Source: a virus (lineage: Duplodnaviria > Heunggongvirae > Uroviricota > Caudoviricetes). Taken from it: 14,084 bases of DNA. A program made the translations under genes and the position numbers. Below are positions 3,068 through 12,636 of this stretch, one piece after another (the first letter of the stretch is position 1; each line of letters begins with the position of its first letter). The notes beneath the pieces were generated by a model that saw only the letters and a list, made by a program, of their open reading frames with translations, made no database searches and was not told the DNA's origin. Location: positions 1 to 14,084 of IMG/VR virus record IMGVR_UViG_2541047837_000006. One strand, given 5' to 3'.

Positions 3068-3179
3068 AACTGAAGTTGCCCTGAAAATGAAATTTTTTTG
3101 CACAACCGCAGAACTTTTCCGCAGGGCATCAGTCTTAATTAGTGCCACTGCTTTTCTTTGATGTCCCCATTTTGTGGAG

Positions 3180-3222
3180 CCCATCAACCCCGCCATTTCG
3201 GTTCAAGGTTGATGGGTTTTTT
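3180..3222 (+). terminator. Rho-independent terminator downstream of ybjL
   Basis: Stem cccatcaacc (3180-3189) / ggttgatggg (3207-3216) followed by TTTTTT (3217-3222). Confidence 0.55.
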
Positions 3223-3302
3223 GTTGCCTGAAATTTATACCGTTTAAAATCATGATGTTAGAAGAACTGTTTTTTAACGATGGCGACAAAATGGCGGCAG
3301 CG

Positions 3303-3521
3303 TCAAAGAGAGAGCGCCACCTGCCCTGATTTCATTGGATGCGGCTGAACCGGATTTGACTCTTTTGGCGTTGCAATCGAACGAACAAAAGTTTCATGAG
3401 TAACAAAAGTATGGCTGCAGTTAATGTTCTGGCACTGGTTGTAACGCTCTTTGGTCAATGAAGATACCTGAAAACTGCTGCGAGTATGGGCGGCACTTCC
3501 ACACAGTGGGCAAATCATCAT
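3303..3521 (-). CDS. ogr: Ogr/Delta-family zinc-finger late transcription activator
   Basis: 72-aa product from ATG at 3521 (SD-like GGGGAGAA upstream); C-x2-C-x22-C-x4-C motif (CPLC ... CQNINC). The ORF is open to a GTG at 3554, so the start is uncertain. Confidence 0.85.
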   Translation of the reverse strand: MMICPLCGSAAHTRSSFQVSSLTKERYNQCQNINCSHTFVTHETFVRSIATPKESNPVQPHPMKSGQVALSL

Positions 3522-3611
3522 TTTTCGAGTTCTCCCCATTTTTGCTAAATTCACAATAATGATACCGCATTATCCCATTTTGCAAACTTAAAAGTTCTCC
3601 ATTGCGAAGAA

Positions 3612-4880
3612 TCATTCCATTTCGAAATCATCAATCCTCACTTCAAGCTCCAGACTGGTCGTAAAACCATTATCCGGGCTGACGGTATGTGTCAGAGTCG
3701 TAATGGTCCATTCCGCATCATCTATCGGCTGTTTAAAGCCACTGACTTTCACTGGCATTTCCGTGTAGAGATCTGCCCGCCCTTCCGCCAGTTGTAGCGA
3801 GAATGACGCAACGCCGCGTTGCAGGCGTTCCCACTGCATTTTCGCCGCTCGTTCAGCGTTGCCCCGGTTGGCATAAGTACGATTAAGTACCAGCACGTTT
3901 TCATCCGTACCCACCAGGTAATCGCCCTGCTTCGCTTCCGGCTCTTTCTTCTGCTTTGCGGTCCTGCGCTTACGCTTCACCGTGGTGCTTTCTTTCTTCG
4001 CGGGTTCGCGGGTATGCAACCAGCTGGCAATTACGCCCGTGTAAGATCCGCGATCTGCCAGGGTAAAGCGGTGACTGTCGCCGTCCTTACGTGTGATAGT
4101 GATCACCGGCAGTGGTTTACCGCTGGCGCTTTTACCCTGTCCCTGCCGAATGAATAACAGATTGCCATTTTTCACCGACGCAATAGCACCGTACTGGCGC
4201 GCCAGCCGCATCAGAAAACTGCCGTCACTCTCATTAGTCTGGTCTATATGTTCCACGGGTTTATCTGACAGGTCTTTACCCAGTGCCATCTTCAGCTTGT
4301 GACGCGCGGCTATTTCCTTCACCACTTCCCCAACTGTGGTCTTGTGCCACGATTTTTCACGGCGGGTATTCAGCGTTTCCCGAAAATCAGCACTTCGCGC
4401 CCGGACACCGTCCACAATTTCCACCATGTTGATAAGGTCCACTTCGTAGAGCACCTCACCATTGATGGTCAGCTTCGCGTAGCTGTTGGTACTGGTCACT
4501 TTGGTGGTGTTGCTTTCGCCCGTCTTCCACTCGCCGGAATCCACTTCTTTGTGACGTCCACGCACCACAAGCTCCACGGCCTGCACTTCCCCGGTATCGT
4601 CACGCTGGATAGAGCCGGTAAAGCGCAGCTGGATGCCATCCACCGTAGCTTTGCCCATCTGCTTAAACAGCAGCAGCTCAGTACCGCCAATGGAAAATTC
4701 AGTATCCAGTGCGCCGTCATCCAGTCCCAGATCCACATCCACCGCCCCCGGCATACCGCCGCCGCGATACTTCTCATATTTGCGGGTGAATTTCGGCAGC
4801 GTCAGCGACTCTACGATCCCCTGCCAGTTGTTCCCGTCGTTAAACAGGTTCAGATGTTTTAATTTACGTGGTAAAGCCAT
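3612..4880 (-). CDS. Chimeric ORF: tail tube FII-like N-terminus (~155 aa) fused in frame to tail protein D-like C-terminus (~265 aa); probable deletion product
   Basis: N-terminus MALPRKLKHLNLFNDG resembles P2 FII tail tube; C-terminus resembles the gpD family and sits directly upstream of ogr as D does in P2. The genes expected between FII and D (E, E', T, U) are absent. Confidence 0.65.
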   Translation of the reverse strand: MALPRKLKHLNLFNDGNNWQGIVESLTLPKFTRKYEKYRGGGMPGAVDVDLGLDDGALDTEFSIGGTELLLFKQMGKATVDGIQLRFTGSIQRDDTGEVQAVELVVRGRHKEVDSGEWKTGESNTTKVTSTNSYAKLTINGEVLYEVDLINMVEIVDGVRARSADFRETLNTRREKSWHKTTVGEVVKEIAARHKLKMALGKDLSDKPVEHIDQTNESDGSFLMRLARQYGAIASVKNGNLLFIRQGQGKSASGKPLPVITITRKDGDSHRFTLADRGSYTGVIASWLHTREPAKKESTTVKRKRRTAKQKKEPEAKQGDYLVGTDENVLVLNRTYANRGNAERAAKMQWERLQRGVASFSLQLAEGRADLYTEMPVKVSGFKQPIDDAEWTITTLTHTVSPDNGFTTSLELEVRIDDFEME

Positions 4881-4889
4881 GTTGCCCCC

Positions 4890-6062
4890 TTACGCGCTTA
4901 CCTGGCTGGAGAAATTCACCAGGTACTGATCGGTGATGCGCTGACGCAGCATCAGGTTTTCAAGTGGCGGTACTGGCGTGTAGTCGTAATCGATGGTGAG
5001 TTTTCCGGCTTTCAGCGTGTCTTTATCGTTCACCGACTCGTCCAGCCAGCAATCACCACCAATGAGATAGCCCTGACTGACCAGGCTGCGCATTTTGGCG
5101 CGAATACCTTCGATAATGTCGCGGGCCAGCGACGGGTTCAGCGGTTTGTCCACCGCCCACATATGCGCTTCTGCCATCGTGTCCATCAGTACCTGCGCCG
5201 TGCGGGTGTAGTTTTCGAAGGCAAAGAGCGGGTCATCACTCAGGCAGCGGGAACCCCAGAAGCGGAAACCGTCTTTGCGGATAAGCGTGGTGACGTCGTT
5301 CTGGTTAAGCAGTCCCGCATCGGTTGCCGGGTCCTGCAGATCCCAGAACACATCAGCAGAAATTCCGGTGACACCGTTCACGCCTACGTTGGACAGGCTC
5401 TTGTGCCACCCGGTCTGCTCATCAATTTTGGCGCGCAGACCGAGCGCACGGGCGGTGGCATATGCCGTTGCTTCGGCATTCAGCACCGTGTCCCAGCCAG
5501 TAAAGTCAGGCCAGATCAGCATCCCTTCGCGCTGACTGAAGTTTTCACGGTAAGTGATCGCCTCCTGCACTGTCTTGCAGCCATACGCTGACAGGTAAGC
5601 AAACCCGCGCAGGCTTTGCGCCACACTCAGCAGCTCAGTCGCAACGGCTTTGTTATCGTGACCCGGCACGCCGAGAATGCGCGGTTTAACGCCGAGCTGT
5701 GACTGGGCAGATAACAGGGCTTTCATACCTGTTTTTTTACCCTCGGCGGTCACTGCGCCAATGATATTGGTTGTGGTTTCTTCTTCCGTTTCACCCTGCG
5801 GCACACGCACAACAACGGTCACGGGTTTTGCCTGGTCAGCGATGGCATCCAGCGAACGGGCCAGCGTGCCGGACTCACCCGCTTTACCGCTGGCAGTCAG
5901 CACATCAGTGATCAGCACGGGTTTATTAAGAGGAAACATTTTTGCATCGGCATCATCGCCCGTGCAGACCATGCCCACGATGGCGGTGCTCACCGTGGTA
6001 ATGGATCGGGTGCCTTCGTTGACTTCAACAACGCGCACTCCGTGGTGGTAATCCTGAGCCAT
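4890..6062 (-). CDS. FI: Contractile tail sheath protein FI
   Basis: 390-aa product; N-terminus [19 protein letters not shown] and C-terminal region [13 protein letters not shown] match P2 FI as I recall it; immediately upstream of the FII-like ORF. Confidence 0.9.
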
Positions 6063-6084
6063 AAGGCAGTCTCTCCGGTTGTAG

Positions 6085-6160
6085 AGGGGGTCTGCCTATG
6101 TTCTGGTTGATACGCGCAGGGTGCACGCGATGGGGATTGTATGGGAAATGGCACAACAGC
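6085..6160 (-). promoter_or_regulatory. Putative Ogr-dependent late promoter pF (dyad TGT-N12-ACA at 6138-6155)
   Basis: TGT (6138-6140), 12-nt spacer, ACA (6153-6155); dyad centre about 85 nt upstream of the FI ATG, consistent with a -55 activator site and ~30-nt leader. Confidence 0.5.
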
Positions 6161-6275
6161 GCCATGAGGGCTTTTCATAAAATAATCAATATATCTCAAT
6201 ATGTATTGATTATTATACGCAAATCTATTTTACTATTGCGCATCTGTCATCCATTTAAATCAGATTGAATACTAT

Positions 6276-7307
6276 ATGAAAAGAGATATTTCTTTAGACC
6301 TGTTACGTATTATTTGTTGTATTTTTGTAATAGGAATTCATGTCACGCCCGACTATGCTTATACTGTTACCAGTAACCAAACAGAAAGTATACAAATACA
6401 AACTCTTTTTGCACAATCAATTGTACGCATTGGTTTACCAATATTCTTTATGTTAAGTGGATACTACCTACTCAACAGACAAAATAGCACTCCACTTTTG
6501 TTTTATAAAAAAAGAATCCCCGCCATTATTATCCCTTTTGTAATATATTCATTAGCACATTACTATATTATTAGCTGGAATAATGGAACGTCATCGAATT
6601 TACTTGAATATTTCTCATTAATATCTAAAAGCACTATTTCACTCTCTGTGCATTTCTGGTTTGTTTATGCCTTTATCGGTTTGTATTTAACCGCTCCAGC
6701 AATTCAATACATAGTCAATAAAATCCCACAAGCCGACAGCCTTAAGGTGATTATAGTTTTGGCTTTCATTTTTTATTATTCATTATACTCATACTCTCTA
6801 AGCCAATCCTCTCAATACTACCATCATTTAATCCCATTACAGAGCATAGATACATGGGTTTTATATTTTGTTGTCGGCGGATTATTAAAAAGAGTTGACA
6901 TTAAAACACATTATATTGTATATAGCATCCCTTTTATATTTTTACTACATGTGATGTTTGTTTATTTTAGCGTTAACAAATATAACTTTAACATATACCC
7001 ATTTGACTCAGGGATTAATATGTTGTTAATGTGTTCCTTGATAGTAATTGCATTTACAAAAATAAACATCAATAATAAAAAAATAATTTTAATCATTGAA
7101 AAAATAGCACCTCTGACATACGGAATTTATTTAATTCATGTTTGTGTTTTCAGAGTCTTAGAGAAATATTTCAATATTCCTTTTATCGTGGACAACATTT
7201 TACTAAAAACAACATCCCTGTCTTTAGTCATTTTTTTTATCAGCCTTGGTTTAAGCTTGATTATTGATCGGTTGTTTGTTAATCCAATTCTCAGACTGAA
7301 TCGTTAA
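6276..7307 (+). CDS. Acyltransferase-3 family integral membrane protein (Oac/OafA-like acyltransferase); prophage cargo gene
   Basis: 343 aa, highly hydrophobic with multiple predicted TM segments; N-terminal LDLLRIICCIFVIGIHV resembles the family signature; strongly AT-rich; occupies the position of Z/fun in P2. Confidence 0.72.
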   Translation: MKRDISLDLLRIICCIFVIGIHVTPDYAYTVTSNQTESIQIQTLFAQSIVRIGLPIFFMLSGYYLLNRQNSTPLLFYKKRIPAIIIPFVIYSLAHYYIISWNNGTSSNLLEYFSLISKSTISLSVHFWFVYAFIGLYLTAPAIQYIVNKIPQADSLKVIIVLAFIFYYSLYSYSLSQSSQYYHHLIPLQSIDTWVLYFVVGGLLKRVDIKTHYIVYSIPFIFLLHVMFVYFSVNKYNFNIYPFDSGINMLLMCSLIVIAFTKININNKKIILIIEKIAPLTYGIYLIHVCVFRVLEKYFNIPFIVDNILLKTTSLSLVIFFISLGLSLIIDRLFVNPILRLNR

Positions 7308-7767
7308 ATGGCTTAGTCGGAAAGGCTGTATCAGAGGCTTTTGATGGATCAATAGCCTCTAATGCTTCAATATAATCAAGCCATATGTTATACATTTCCA
7401 GTTCAGTAGCATTCAGTCTCCCAAGCAATGCTTTCCCCTGCCATTGTTTGTTATTTATATAATTTACAGCTTCTATTATACGTGCTTGTTTTTCAGTTTT
7501 TGCTTTAGCCACTAACTCTGTATATGTGAGTGGTGGCGTATCAATCCATGCAGGCATACCATTATCATCTGCCCCAAGAATTTTTCCTTCCGGAGGTTGT
7601 TTCATGAATTCACAAGCAGTCTCATTTGAAATATCCACCCCTTCCTTAGGCCACATTCCATTTCTTTCATATTCATTTTTTAATATATACGCCATAAATC
7701 TGGCATTTACCTTATCCCATATGAAATCATAAGAAGAATCATGTTGATAATCATCACAACTTTTCAT
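7291..7767 (-). CDS. Tail fibre assembly chaperone (Tfa / gpG-like)
   Basis: 158-aa ORF starting 2 nt after the H stop; soluble protein with a C-terminal region resembling Tfa proteins; AT-rich like the 3' end of H. Confidence 0.6.
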   Translation of the reverse strand: MKSCDDYQHDSSYDFIWDKVNARFMAYILKNEYERNGMWPKEGVDISNETACEFMKQPPEGKILGADDNGMPAWIDTPPLTYTELVAKAKTEKQARIIEAVNYINNKQWQGKALLGRLNATELEMYNIWLDYIEALEAIDPSKASDTAFPTKPFNDSV

Positions 7768-7769
7768 AT

Positions 7770-9209
7770 TTAATATCCAAATGCAATAAATACAGCGCCT
7801 GAAACTTTTGAATCACTGCTGGTTCCTGATGTCAAACAAGTTACAGCAGTAAACCCATCATTATATATACTTTCGCACGACGTAACGACTTGTGCATATG
7901 TCATTTTTGTGACAAACACACCCCATACTCCGTTAGGGAATGGCGTTGGATATGTAATAGGAAGCTGTTGTGGAATACCAATAGTTGTACTATTAGGAAG
8001 ATTTCTTCGAAATATTTGTATAATTAAACCATTCGGACCTTTAACCAACAAATTATCGCTTCCTTTTCCTGTTAGCTGAAAATAGCTCATGTCAGGGATT
8101 TCATAACTATTAGCATTACCAACATTTCTACCTGCCGCATTTCCCAAATGCCCTAAACCAAGATAAGTAAGAATTCCTTCTATATCCTTTCCACTCAAAT
8201 TAGTCAGCGTATTATCCAGCGGTTGTTTGCCTGCCAGCGCATTAAGCATTGTCGTGGCAAAGTTCGGGTCATTCCCCAGCGCCGCCGCCAGTTCGTTCAG
8301 TGTATCCAGTGCCGCAGGTGCAGACCCCACCATTGCTGCAATTGCCGATTTCACAAAAGCTGTAGTGGCAATCTGTGTATTGTTGACCGACTGCGCCGCC
8401 GTGGGGGCTGTTGGCGTTCCGGTGAGTGCCGGACTCGACAACGGTGCTTTTAGTGCCAGCACATTGTTAATGGTGGTACTGAAATTCGGATCATTGTTAA
8501 TGGCTGCGGCTATTTCTTTCAGCGTGTCCAGCGTGGCTGGCGCACCATTAATAAGGGCCGTCAGTGCCGCCTGAACAAACGCAGTGGTCGCAACCTGCGT
8601 GGTATTATTCCCCGCCGCTGGCGTTGGCGCTTTGGGGGTTCCGGTAAACGTCGGACTTTCTTTGGGTGCATACTGTGAATGTGGGTCCTGTGCGGCAAGG
8701 TGTTTTGCCATCAGGTCATCCACATACACCTTCAGCTCCAGTACCTTGTCATCCACATACTTGCGGGTTGCCAGCACTACAGCAGGATCGATTTTCAGGG
8801 TGATATTTTCCGTGCTGCTGGTAATCAGCACCATGCGCACGGTCTGGGTGCGCCCGCTGCCTTCAGCCAGTTGCGGCTTATAGCTTTCCGGGCAGTTGCC
8901 CACGGCAATCAATGCCCCGGACTCATCAAACAGGCCCACTTCACGTATCCACCAACCTCCCTCGTTTTCAGGGATCACCTGTTCGGCAATAATCTGGCTG
9001 CTGTTCTGCGGGTCGATATAGAGCATATTCAGCGCAGCCCGGCGTTTCTCATTTACCAGTGCCGTCTGCTTTGCGTCCGGCGTTGGCAATGTTCCGCCGC
9101 CATCGCCGACCGCCATATGGGTAATTTTTAAAGGCACACCGAGCGCGGCGGCGCTGGCAAGTTTCGCCGCGCCAATATCCGTCAGCAGGGTATAAAATTT
9201 TGTGCTCAT
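7770..9209 (-). CDS. H: Tail fibre protein H with conserved N-terminus and divergent C-terminal receptor-binding region
   Basis: N-terminus MSTKFYTLLTDIGAAKLA ... MAVGDGGG ... ESYKPQLAEGSGR resembles P2 gpH; internal repeats contain the NELAAALGNDPNF motif; C-terminal ~160 aa unrelated and AT-rich. Confidence 0.85.
   Translation of the reverse strand: MSTKFYTLLTDIGAAKLASAAALGVPLKITHMAVGDGGGTLPTPDAKQTALVNEKRRAALNMLYIDPQNSSQIIAEQVIPENEGGWWIREVGLFDESGALIAVGNCPESYKPQLAEGSGRTQTVRMVLITSSTENITLKIDPAVVLATRKYVDDKVLELKVYVDDLMAKHLAAQDPHSQYAPKESPTFTGTPKAPTPAAGNNTTQVATTAFVQAALTALINGAPATLDTLKEIAAAINNDPNFSTTINNVLALKAPLSSPALTGTPTAPTAAQSVNNTQIATTAFVKSAIAAMVGSAPAALDTLNELAAALGNDPNFATTMLNALAGKQPLDNTLTNLSGKDIEGILTYLGLGHLGNAAGRNVGNANSYEIPDMSYFQLTGKGSDNLLVKGPNGLIIQIFRRNLPNSTTIGIPQQLPITYPTPFPNGVWGVFVTKMTYAQVVTSCESIYNDGFTAVTCLTSGTSSDSKVSGAVFIAFGY
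8230..8700. repeat. Diverged tandem duplication (~230 bp unit) inside tail fibre gene H
   Basis: Two protein-level repeats (ATTAFV...ALDTL.E.AAA...DPNF.TT) and corresponding DNA similarity, e.g. gttccggtgagtgccgg versus gttccggtaaacgtcgg; boundaries approximate. Confidence 0.55.
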
Positions 9210-9811
9210 GGATTCACTCTCATTGTGTCAATAACATGGACCGCCCCGCCTTCATGCGCGGTGCCGCCGGAAATAATTGTTTCGTTGATATACGGATAGA
9301 TCGTGATTTCTTCACCAAGATAGCTGGCGGCTCCCACCCAATGCGGGCCGCTGGTCTGCAGATTGATGGACATGCCGATCATGTGACGGCTACATGGTTT
9401 GGCATCGCTTATCAGCCGCTCAAGCTCCAGATAGGTATCTTCAGTGATGCCCTGGTCCTGCACACCAATGTCCAGGCGAAACGTACCCGGTGTTTCTCCG
9501 GTCTGCCACCACTCAATAATGCGGATCAGGAAGCCGAACGGCTCCACCACCCGCCGCACGGCACTGGTGGTTCCTTTATGCTGATGAATATAAAAAGCAT
9601 CCTTCACCACCTGTCGTTTGACGCTTTCCGTCCAGCCCTCGTCCCAGCGATCCACAGAGAACGCCCAGGCGAGATAAGGCAGGAAACTGATCGGACAGGT
9701 CGTTGGATTCCACAAGTCACGCAGCGGCACCTGCAGATCAGAAATCCCGCTGCAGGTTTGCGCCAGTCGGCGCTCCAGTGGCGTTGAACCCGGTGGCAGC
9801 AGACTATTCAT
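9206..9811 (-). CDS. I: Baseplate/tail protein I
   Basis: 201-aa product with the motif LRDLWNPTTCP ... LAWAFSVDRWDE ... GTFRLDIGV ... DAKPCSRHMIG resembling P2 gpI; start overlaps the preceding J' stop and its stop overlaps the H start. Confidence 0.8.
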   Translation of the reverse strand: MNSLLPPGSTPLERRLAQTCSGISDLQVPLRDLWNPTTCPISFLPYLAWAFSVDRWDEGWTESVKRQVVKDAFYIHQHKGTTSAVRRVVEPFGFLIRIIEWWQTGETPGTFRLDIGVQDQGITEDTYLELERLISDAKPCSRHMIGMSINLQTSGPHWVGAASYLGEEITIYPYINETIISGGTAHEGGAVHVIDTMRVNP

Positions 9812-10034
9812 CCGTTCCTCCGTTGGTTACGCTCCACTGCGTACATGATGCCGCCTGTGTTTTGTTCAGGACCACATCCGCCAGAGGAGAAGCCAGCTCC
9901 ACACGCTGCACACCCTCAACATGCAGGGCGGCAAAGATGGCGCTACGGCGAATATCCCGACCAAGACGCGTCTGACTGGCGATGTACTTCTGCAGGCTGG
10001 CTTTTGCCGCTGCCATTACCGGCTCTGCTTCCGG
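9804..10034 (-). pseudogene. J: Baseplate protein J, C-terminal ~70-aa fragment
   Basis: Translation AKASLQKYIASQTRLGRDIRRSAIFAALHVEGVQRVEL resembles the gpJ C-terminus; the frame is closed by a stop at 10035-10037, so the N-terminal ~230 aa are absent. Confidence 0.6.
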
Positions 10035-10375
10035 TCAGCGAACTTCGGGCTGACTTCCATAGAGGTGAATAATTTCTGGCCTTTTTTCACCAGTTCCACC
10101 AGGGACTCCGTTGGCTCAACGTCGGCATACAGCGCCATCTTGCCTGCCAGCGGACCTTCCGTGATTTCTTCAGCAAACAGCGCCGTCACCTTGCCGTAGC
10201 GGTTAAAGGTGCTGTCCGGCAGATAAGACTTGATGTGCTCAAGGTTAATCAGCGCGGTATACACCGCCGGGTTGTAGCTGGCTGCCATCTGTTCCAGCCA
10301 TTCTCGCTGGATTTCGCGTCCGTCGGTGGTGGCACCTTCCACCCCGATGCGAAAACGCTTTGCTTTCACTGTCAT
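10016..10375 (-). pseudogene. O: Capsid scaffold protein O, N-terminal ~110-aa fragment
   Basis: Translation FRIGVEGATTDGREIQ ... INLEHIK ... TSMEVSPKFA resembles the gpO N-terminus; ORF ends after 119 aa versus ~280 aa for intact O. Confidence 0.65.
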
Positions 10376-10399: not shown

Positions 10400-10475
10400 T
10401 TACTGGAGCCTTATGGTTGCGGTGATGGGGGCAGTGAAACAATGCGCGGTATTTGTACCGACAACCACACAAACC
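10400..10475 (-). promoter_or_regulatory. Putative Ogr-dependent late promoter pO (dyad TGT-N12-ACA at 10454-10471)
   Basis: TGT (10454-10456), 12-nt spacer, ACA (10469-10471); dyad centre ~87 nt upstream of the O' ATG, the same spacing as the FI dyad. Confidence 0.5.
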
Positions 10476-10517
10476 GCAGGCGGGGAAAGCCTTCATTCAA
10501 GGCTGTAGGTTTGTGCC

Positions 10518-11372
10518 ATGAACACCACACTGACACCCGCAGATCTCGATCCCCGTCGGCAGGCCATGCTGCTGTACTTTCAGGGATACCGCGTAGCCCG
10601 CATTGCTGAAATGCTGGGCGAGAAAGTTGCAACCGTTCACAGCTGGAAAAAACGCGACAAGTGGGGTGACTATGGGCCGCTGGATCAGATGCAGCTCACC
10701 ACCGCCGCACGCTACTGCCAGCTCATCATGAAGGAGCACAAAGAAGGGAAAGATTTCAAAGAGATTGACCTGCTGGCGCGCCAGTCTGAGCGCCACGCGC
10801 GGATCGGCAAGTTTAACAATGGCGGCAACGAATCCGACTTAAACCCTAACGTCGCCAACCGCAACAAAGGCCCACGCCGTCAGCCGGAAAAGAATGTTTT
10901 CACCGATGAGCAGATTGAGAAGCTGGAAGAAATCTTCCATTCCTCCATGTTCAACTACCAGCGCCACTGGTGGGAAGCCGGAAAAACCAACCGCATCCGC
11001 AACCTGCTGAAGTCACGCCAGATCGGCGCGACCTTTTACTTTGCCCGTGAAGCCCTGATTGACGCCCTGCTGACCGGACGTAACCAGATTTTCCTTTCCG
11101 CCAGCAAGGCACAGGCCCACGTCTTTAAGCAGTACATCATCGACTTCGCCAAAGAAGTGGAGGTGGAGTTGAAAGGCGATCCGATGGTGCTTCCTAACGG
11201 GGCCACGCTTTACTTCCTCGGCACCAATGCCCGCACTGCCCAGAGTTATCACGGCAACCTGTATCTGGATGAATATTTCTGGATACCGAAATTCCAGGAG
11301 CTGCGCAAAGTGGCTTCCGGTACCGCACCTGCAGCAACACGCCCGATCTCTGCGGTTGCACTCATGACGTAA
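10518..11372 (+). pseudogene. P: Terminase large subunit P, N-terminal ~268-aa fragment
   Basis: Translation ...[15 protein letters not shown] ... [12 protein letters not shown] ... [15 protein letters not shown] ... [15 protein letters not shown] resembles the gpP N-terminus; similarity ends near 11321 and the ORF stops at 11372 versus ~590 aa for intact P. Confidence 0.8.
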
Positions 11373-12066: not shown

Positions 12067-12636
12067 GTGGATTTCAATAGCGGCGGTAAGAAAGCCATAG
12101 AACGTTTAGTTGAAGCATATGGGTTCGGTACCCGTCAGGCTCTCTGTGATCATTTAGGTGTTTCTAAGAGCACCATGGCAACGCGCTATATGCGTGATAT
12201 TTTTCCAGCAGATTGGGTAATCCAGTGCGCCCTTGAAACGGGCACCTCGCTTAATTGGCTAACAACAGGGCATGGTTCAAAGCAAGCATCAGCAAATACA
12301 AATACTATAGAAGTAGAAAAATATTTATTGTCTGATGGAGCATTGCAGAAAGACGGTTTTTATATTTTTGATAAGGGATTTCTACCCTCTACGTTTAAAA
12401 AACCTTTTGTCATCACAGATAACAATTCTGAATTTATTTGTGATAAAGAATTTGATGATATACGTGATGGTAAATGGGTAATAAGTATTGATGGCGAAAT
12501 AACGATCCGTGACATTACTCGTTTACCCGGTGGAAGAATCTTCGTCGAGGGTGGAAACAGAGCCTTCGAATGCAAGATAGAAGACATTGAAATAATTGGT
12601 AAAATTATAAGTTTAACAGTCAAGCATGTTAAATAG
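12067..12636 (+). CDS. 186 CI-type immunity repressor (~189 aa)
   Basis: Divergent from apl and upstream of int; LVEAYGFG N-terminal region and overall length consistent with the 186 CI family. Start set at GTG 12067 (GGAGGA at 12058-12063); the ORF is open to a GTG at 11980, so the start is uncertain. Confidence 0.65.
   Translation: MDFNSGGKKAIERLVEAYGFGTRQALCDHLGVSKSTMATRYMRDIFPADWVIQCALETGTSLNWLTTGHGSKQASANTNTIEVEKYLLSDGALQKDGFYIFDKGFLPSTFKKPFVITDNNSEFICDKEFDDIRDGKWVISIDGEITIRDITRLPGGRIFVEGGNRAFECKIEDIEIIGKIISLTVKHVK

Follow-up and report, generated by a model that had tools for sequence, protein, structure and literature searches.

The inverted repeat at positions 6137-6156 (minus strand) of the window, as we call the whole 14,084-nt stretch of DNA that was analysed, is very probably the activator site of a pF-type late promoter that would transcribe a tail sheath operon, as the counterpart of pF in phage P2 and pJ in phage 186 (probability about 0.87). 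The element is already well known in kind, and its sequence is intact here in a defective Elveevirus/Fels-2-like prophage of the P2 family. The late regulatory module of this prophage is likewise sequence-intact, in that the activator gene and two predicted activator sites survive. The value of the result lies mainly in annotation, and the understanding of late control in the P2 family is unchanged by it.

The mechanism envisaged for the site is drawn from established work on P2, 186 and P4. Ogr, encoded 2.5 kb downstream, would bind TTGT-N12-ACAA with its centre some 55-58 bp before the transcription start and would contact the C-terminal domain of the RNA polymerase alpha subunit. Sigma-70 polymerase would be recruited to a weak promoter with a GAACAT -10 element and no -35 element, and transcription would start near 6089-6091 (minus strand) and proceed through the sheath gene FI and the FII::D fusion gene. 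The transcript would probably run on into ogr, since no intrinsic terminator was predicted between FI and ogr. In P2, the late promoters share TGT-N12-ACA and depend on the zinc-finger protein Ogr, with the motif CX2CX22CX4C (PMC3931495). Ogr binds inverted repeats near -55 and its contact with the alpha subunit is required (PMC3152322); suppressors of rpoA109 (L290H) map in ogr (PMC11434276). We infer Ogr binding, the start site and promoter activity for E. coli LR-64-2 (NZ_AP027595), to which the window DNA is 100% identical.

The dyad and its core promoter

Positions 6138-6155 read TGTATGGGAAATGGCACA on the plus strand and TGTGCCATTTCCCATACA on the minus strand, which is that of FI. The dyad symmetry of P2-family late promoters, TGT-N12-ACA, is exact in this core and extends to TTGT-N12-ACAA over 6137-6156 (TTGTGCCATTTCCCATACAA; with its context on the FI strand, gcTGTTGTGCCATTTCCCATACAAtcc). 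Late promoters of this family lie in front of the P, O, V or F operon, and the dyad is located directly upstream of FI. The initial annotation had described it as the only TGT-N12-ACA in the FI upstream region, which holds true for the 213-bp spacer that runs from the FI start (6062) to the acyltransferase start (6276). The distance of about 85 nt to the FI start codon that was given there also agrees with the sequence when measured from the dyad centre (6146.5), which is 84.5 nt from the A of the ATG; the TGT itself starts 93 nt before the ATG.

The bare motif was not enriched across the window, with six matches found against 4.17 expected and at least six in 47 of 200 shuffles, and the chance of one exact match within the 213-bp spacer was estimated from the background rate at about 6%. 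The case for the site therefore rests on position and comparison. Four other bare matches lay within coding sequence, as chance background. The extended form TTGT-N12-ACAA was present in two copies in the 14-kb window against 0.39 expected, at 6137-6156 and 10453-10472, and both copies fall in the two surviving late-promoter spacers, upstream of FI and between O and P. The site was judged non-random because the extended motif is confined to these two spacers and because the same offset recurs in every close relative examined.

The truncated genes O (10034-10375, minus strand, ATG at 10375) and P (10518-11327, plus strand) diverge from a spacer that holds the second extended dyad, TTGTACCGACAACCACACAA, which is predicted to correspond to the activator site shared by pO and pP. 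The surrounding region is 98-99.7% identical to complete phages, and the same site is present in the P/O spacer of both Klebsiella phage 4LV2017 and the prophage of E. coli CFT073. The same motif thus stands at another late promoter of the window, from which the pV region has been deleted. In 4LV2017, eight bare TGT-N12-ACA matches were found; those of the P/O spacer, of V and of the FI upstream region are all extended, while four of the other five lack the extended form and one intragenic match (11036) has it. In CFT073, TTGT...ACAA stands at three places only, P/O, V and FI; the five further bare matches all lack the extension. The V site of 4LV2017 is 55.5 nt before the V ATG, in parallel with P2, where the annotated transcription start of the V operon coincides with the start of V. 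With the dyad of the window at this position, pP would start right on the ATG at 10518, while the P start annotated in 4LV2017 is about 50 nt further in, so the ORF start at 10518 is probably not real. The bare match at 10512-10529 looks like background.

Downstream of the FI dyad, a -10-like hexamer, GAACAT, was recognised at 6098-6103 (minus strand), 52 nt downstream of the first T of the dyad. It matches TATAAT at three of six positions, including A2 and T6. The hexamer at the -35 position, GTGCAC (6121-6126, minus strand), matches TTGACA at two of six positions and leaves no usable -35 element; a sigma-70 scan gave no promoter for the minus-strand core downstream of the dyad. A recognisable -10 without a usable -35 is the weak core of P2-family late promoters and is as expected of an activator-dependent promoter. 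When the P2/186 spacing from TGT to transcription start is applied, the start is predicted at 6089-6091 (minus strand), overlapping the 6090-6095 proposed earlier, with a leader of 27-29 nt. The dyad centre would then sit at about -55 to -58. A Shine-Dalgarno sequence, GGAGAG (6071-6076, minus strand), is located 8 nt before the FI ATG and is conserved in relatives.

Comparison with P2, 186 and closer relatives

The activator sites and transcription starts of P2 and 186 were taken from the record annotations, which derive from experiment. The P2 record places the pF activator site at 17555-17583, the transcription start at 17626-17628 and the FI ATG at 17652; the site sequence, TTGTGCTGTCGATTAGCCAA, is an imperfect TGT-N12-CCA. 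In the 186 record, the B-protein site of pJ is at 14091-14110 (GTTGTGCCAGACATCATCCA), the transcription start at 14159 and the sheath ATG at 14183. The distance from TGT to ATG is 91 nt in P2, 90 nt in 186 and 93 nt in the window. Counted from the first T of TGT, the -10-like hexamer follows at +52 in the window (GAACAT), +52 in 186 (GACAAT) and +53 in P2 (GAAAAT), and transcription starts at +65 to +67 in P2 and at +66 in 186. The P2 late-promoter arrangement claimed for the dyad is supported by the spacings to the ATG and to the -10-like hexamer. An alignment with P2 pF had been proposed as a check, and gave a divided answer: motif and architecture are alike, but no BLAST alignment was obtained. 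With either P2 or 186 as the subject, BLAST aligned nothing upstream of the FI ATG, and the likeness consists of motif and spacing only.

For this reason, a dyad-anchored ungapped alignment of 19 distinct promoter sequences was used. Its consensus reads tTGTg..A....aCA followed by aacAta at +53, and the AACATA block is conserved among the 19 promoters.

186 pJ occupies the same genomic position, between the tail-fibre assembly and sheath genes, it has the left arm GTTGTGCCA in common with the window, and the 186 activator belongs to the same Ogr/Delta zinc-finger family. It differs in its right arm (CCA, compared to ACA in the window), in the rest of the promoter, which is unrelated (31% identity, ungapped), and in what precedes the site, which is terminator t45 at a distance of 9 nt in 186 and an acyltransferase cassette in the window. 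P2 pF serves the same operon with the same architecture and a short leader, and its activator Ogr is the founding member of the family; the cargo upstream is fun(Z) in P2 and the acyltransferase in the window. The sheath of the window is only about 64% identical to P2/186-type sheaths.

The close sequence relatives of the promoter are Elveevirus and Fels-2-like phages. Among phage records, BLAST matches that reached upstream of the FI ATG came only from Elveevirus (MLG42, 4LV2017 and related Klebsiella records) and Fels-2-like Salmonella phages. The promoter and the start of FI are 86-89% identical to those of Klebsiella 4LV2017 and Yersinia MLG42, both complete Elveevirus phages. In the CFT073 prophage between ybjL and rcdA, which looks complete, the promoter is 100% identical over 6063-6160, and the same acyltransferase cassette is present at the same site; the corresponding start is predicted at about 935098-935100 of NC_004431 (plus strand). 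These three differ from the window in having full late operons, whereas the operon of the window is cut to FI and the FII::D fusion. No experimental characterisation of the pF promoters of 4LV2017, MLG42 or CFT073 was found in the literature searched, and a search for a transcription-start data set from CFT073 found none.

A wider comparison covered 80 IMG/VR loci in which the first 191 residues of FI are 98-100% identical. Of these, 79 carry an exact TGT-N12-ACA at position -93 or -94 relative to the ATG, and in the one other locus the sequence upstream of FI is just 53 nt long. The promoters of these 79 relatives fall into three sequence classes that otherwise have little in common. In class B, the 32-nt stretch from the dyad to the -10 is only 28% identical to that of the window, which is about random, although FI is 99% identical; nevertheless, the dyad and CAACATAG are kept at the same offsets. 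Phage promoters appear in this comparison as small swappable modules, in which 99% identical sheath genes are preceded by promoters unrelated in sequence that keep only the dyad, the -10-like block and the spacing. The edges of the module are visible in the BLAST breakpoints: in many relatives the homology ends at 6063, a single base short of the ATG, and in those with the promoter in common it ends at 6157-6161, immediately beyond the dyad. The 95-bp promoter so delimited (6063-6157, minus strand) behaves as a mosaic module.

Further afield, TGT-N12-(A/C)CA was found at -90 to -92 in P2, 186, Wphi, PSP3, Fels-2, the Yersinia phages 31.17 and MLG42, and Klebsiella 4LV2017. In ENT90, phiE202 and Mannheimia 587AP1, no match was found near -90 within 130 nt of FI, and similar dyads with a 13-nt spacer were read from the sequences of RSY1 and the phiCTX-like BR319a. 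As these distant P2-like phages deviate, the exact motif and spacing belong to the enterobacterial group and are not universal.

The prophage and its late activator gene

The prophage is a heavily deleted P2/186-like element inserted between ybjL/rybB and rcdA of E. coli. The window is 99.4% identical to CFT073 in the region tested. Upstream of the promoter on the minus strand lie, after truncated O, a J fragment (9804-10034), I (9206-9811), H (7770-9209) and G (7291-7767), with the acyltransferase gene (6276-7307) on the plus strand. FI is the first gene of the operon served by the pF-type promoter. It is intact (4890-6062, minus strand, 390 aa), carries the Pfam domains Phage_sheath_1, Phage_sheath_1C and Gp18_domIII_N, and is annotated as a tail sheath in the source genome. 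It is followed at 3612-4880 (minus strand) by the FII::D gene, in which the N-terminal part of the FII tail tube and the C-terminal part of D are joined. PGAP annotates this region as two pseudogene fragments. The fusion reported in the initial annotation is nonetheless a real in-frame ORF, with Phage_tube at residues 4-159 and Phage_GPD at residues 172-401 according to Pfam. Its junction is near 4405, and genes E, E', T and U have been deleted there. The gene order around FI (sheath, then FII/D remnants, then ogr) agrees with that of P2, 186, 4LV2017 and CFT073. A CII fragment, a 186-type CI gene and an integrase gene were also found in the window.

The late activator gene ogr is located at 3303-3521 (minus strand) and encodes 72 aa with a Pfam Ogr_Delta match (PF04606) of 78 bits. 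The cysteines of the CX2CX22CX4C zinc finger are all present (Cys4, Cys7, Cys30 and Cys35), as expected of a cognate activator. That ogr is intact, as had been claimed, is upheld by the Pfam score, by 100% identity to its counterparts in 20 phage records, complete phage 4LV2017 among them, and by retention of its own promoter, a sigma-70-like match found by scan at 3559-3586 (minus strand; TTTGCA, 16 nt, TATCAT). Ogr has the same protein accession in the window and in CFT073, and the gene with its upstream region and downstream att flank is 97% identical to 4LV2017. The P2 record describes a terminator after ogr as serving the F operon; in the window, no intrinsic terminator was predicted in the corresponding stretch (3226-3302). 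With the late module intact in sequence, the tail genes that are left could be turned on by superinfection with a P2-like phage, by a P4-like satellite or by expression of the resident ogr.

Whether the promoter is ever active here is a separate matter. It may be a true pF by descent that is silent because ogr is off, for example under a resident CI as in 186, or because the prophage is never induced, so that the element merely awaits decay. This reading, which bears on activity and not on the identity of the site, was given a little under even odds. The prophage lacks head, baseplate and tape measure genes, and since it is defective in this way its promoter has most likely survived intact as a relic without use to the host. 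The exact FII::D junction was found in only two of 5426 complete E. coli genomes (LR-64-2 and E423), which provides no argument for upkeep by selection. Furthermore, the 186 record shows the activator promoter pB to be repressed by CI, and a 186-type CI is encoded in the window at 12067-12636 (189 aa; domains Phage_CI_repr and Phage_CI_C). On the other hand, neither the promoter nor ogr carries a damaging change, pF being the same as in CFT073 and Ogr 100% identical to that of complete phages, and no CI-operator-like words of at least 9 nt were common to the ogr upstream and immunity regions.

The remnant gives the impression of an element that is still decaying and has not been domesticated. 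In E. coli E423 (NZ_CM173464, stretch 1-17100), the same prophage with the same FII::D fusion occupies the same site, but its deletion is a different one, from a portal fragment to an I fragment, and the full early region and replication genes are kept; its cargo comprises DarT/macro-domain and AIPR genes. Three pig isolates showed another, 86%-identical FII/E/D rearrangement. The CI of the CFT073 prophage has 289 aa and is unlike that of the window, while the late regions are nearly identical, from which it follows that the remnant is a mosaic relative of the CFT073 prophage and no simple deletion derivative. The prophage appears to be integrated beside rybB. The RybB sRNA gene was identified at 3147-3225 (plus strand; Rfam, 105 bits) just beyond the ogr end, and repeats resembling Int arm-type sites, CGCCATTTT and TCGCCATCG, were seen between the RybB gene and ogr.

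The acyltransferase spacer and other readings of the dyad

The spacer sequence also bears on whether FI depends on Ogr. The dyad could be a site for a host regulator such as CRP, or FI could be transcribed mainly without Ogr, by read-through from H-G or from a sigma-70-like promoter within the AT-rich cargo, but either is unlikely. The best sigma-70-like matches in the spacer do point towards FI, namely ATGACA, 17 nt, TAGATT at 6250-6222 (minus strand) and TGCGCA, 19 nt, TATAAT at 6242-6212. Read-through from H-G into FI, antisense to the acyltransferase gene, is possible: no intrinsic terminator was predicted between G and the dyad (6157-7291), whereas this place is taken in 186 by t45 and in related prophages by a GC-rich hairpin with a T-run, 8-12 nt ahead of the dyad. 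However, such promoter-like matches occur at the chance rate (one found against 1.4 expected in 500 bp of AT-rich DNA), and read-through would add to pF instead of replacing it. As for CRP, its consensus TGTGA-N6-TCACA corresponds to TGT-N10-ACA, while the dyad has a spacing of N12.

It is highly improbable that ogr and pF together form a trigger circuit, in which an activator from an incoming P2-like phage or P4-like satellite, or the resident ogr through pF read-through, would switch on the sheath and the tube-gpD chimera and these could poison the invader's tail assembly. The least probable reading, a chance TGT-N12-ACA without regulatory function, is already contradicted by the comparative data, since the motif, although short and at background frequency in the window, shares its ATG and -10-like offsets with the sites annotated in P2 and 186, is kept at -93/-94 by 79 of 80 relatives in promoter classes with otherwise unrelated spacers, and occurs in its extended form only at the two late-promoter positions. 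The PpsR/CrtJ operator of purple photosynthetic bacteria has an identical consensus string, TGT-N12-ACA; its protein is a repressor of an unrelated family in different organisms, and the match was set aside as a coincidence of string with no bearing on E. coli.

With the dyad taken as the pF activator site, its outer edge coincides with a change in composition. The DNA of 6157-8151 is a low-GC block (22-40%) made up of the acyltransferase gene, G and the C-terminal portion of H, and related prophages become homologous again only from 8152. As the block begins right outside the dyad, the cargo junction respects the outer edge of the activator site. The acyltransferase DNA had no match among 50,697 phage records, and the same cassette is present in the CFT073 prophage. 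An Rfam scan of the window returned RybB as its only match and nothing in the spacer between FI and the acyltransferase gene. The initial annotation had also placed a divergent acyltransferase promoter in this region. That proposal was based on position only; weak candidates but no convincing sigma-70 match were found on the plus strand of 6157-6275. TATATC at 6190-6195 on the plus strand lies at dyad +52, the offset used by late promoters, and a candidate idea is that the symmetric dyad may also serve the divergent acyltransferase gene, in the way that one site serves pP and pO.
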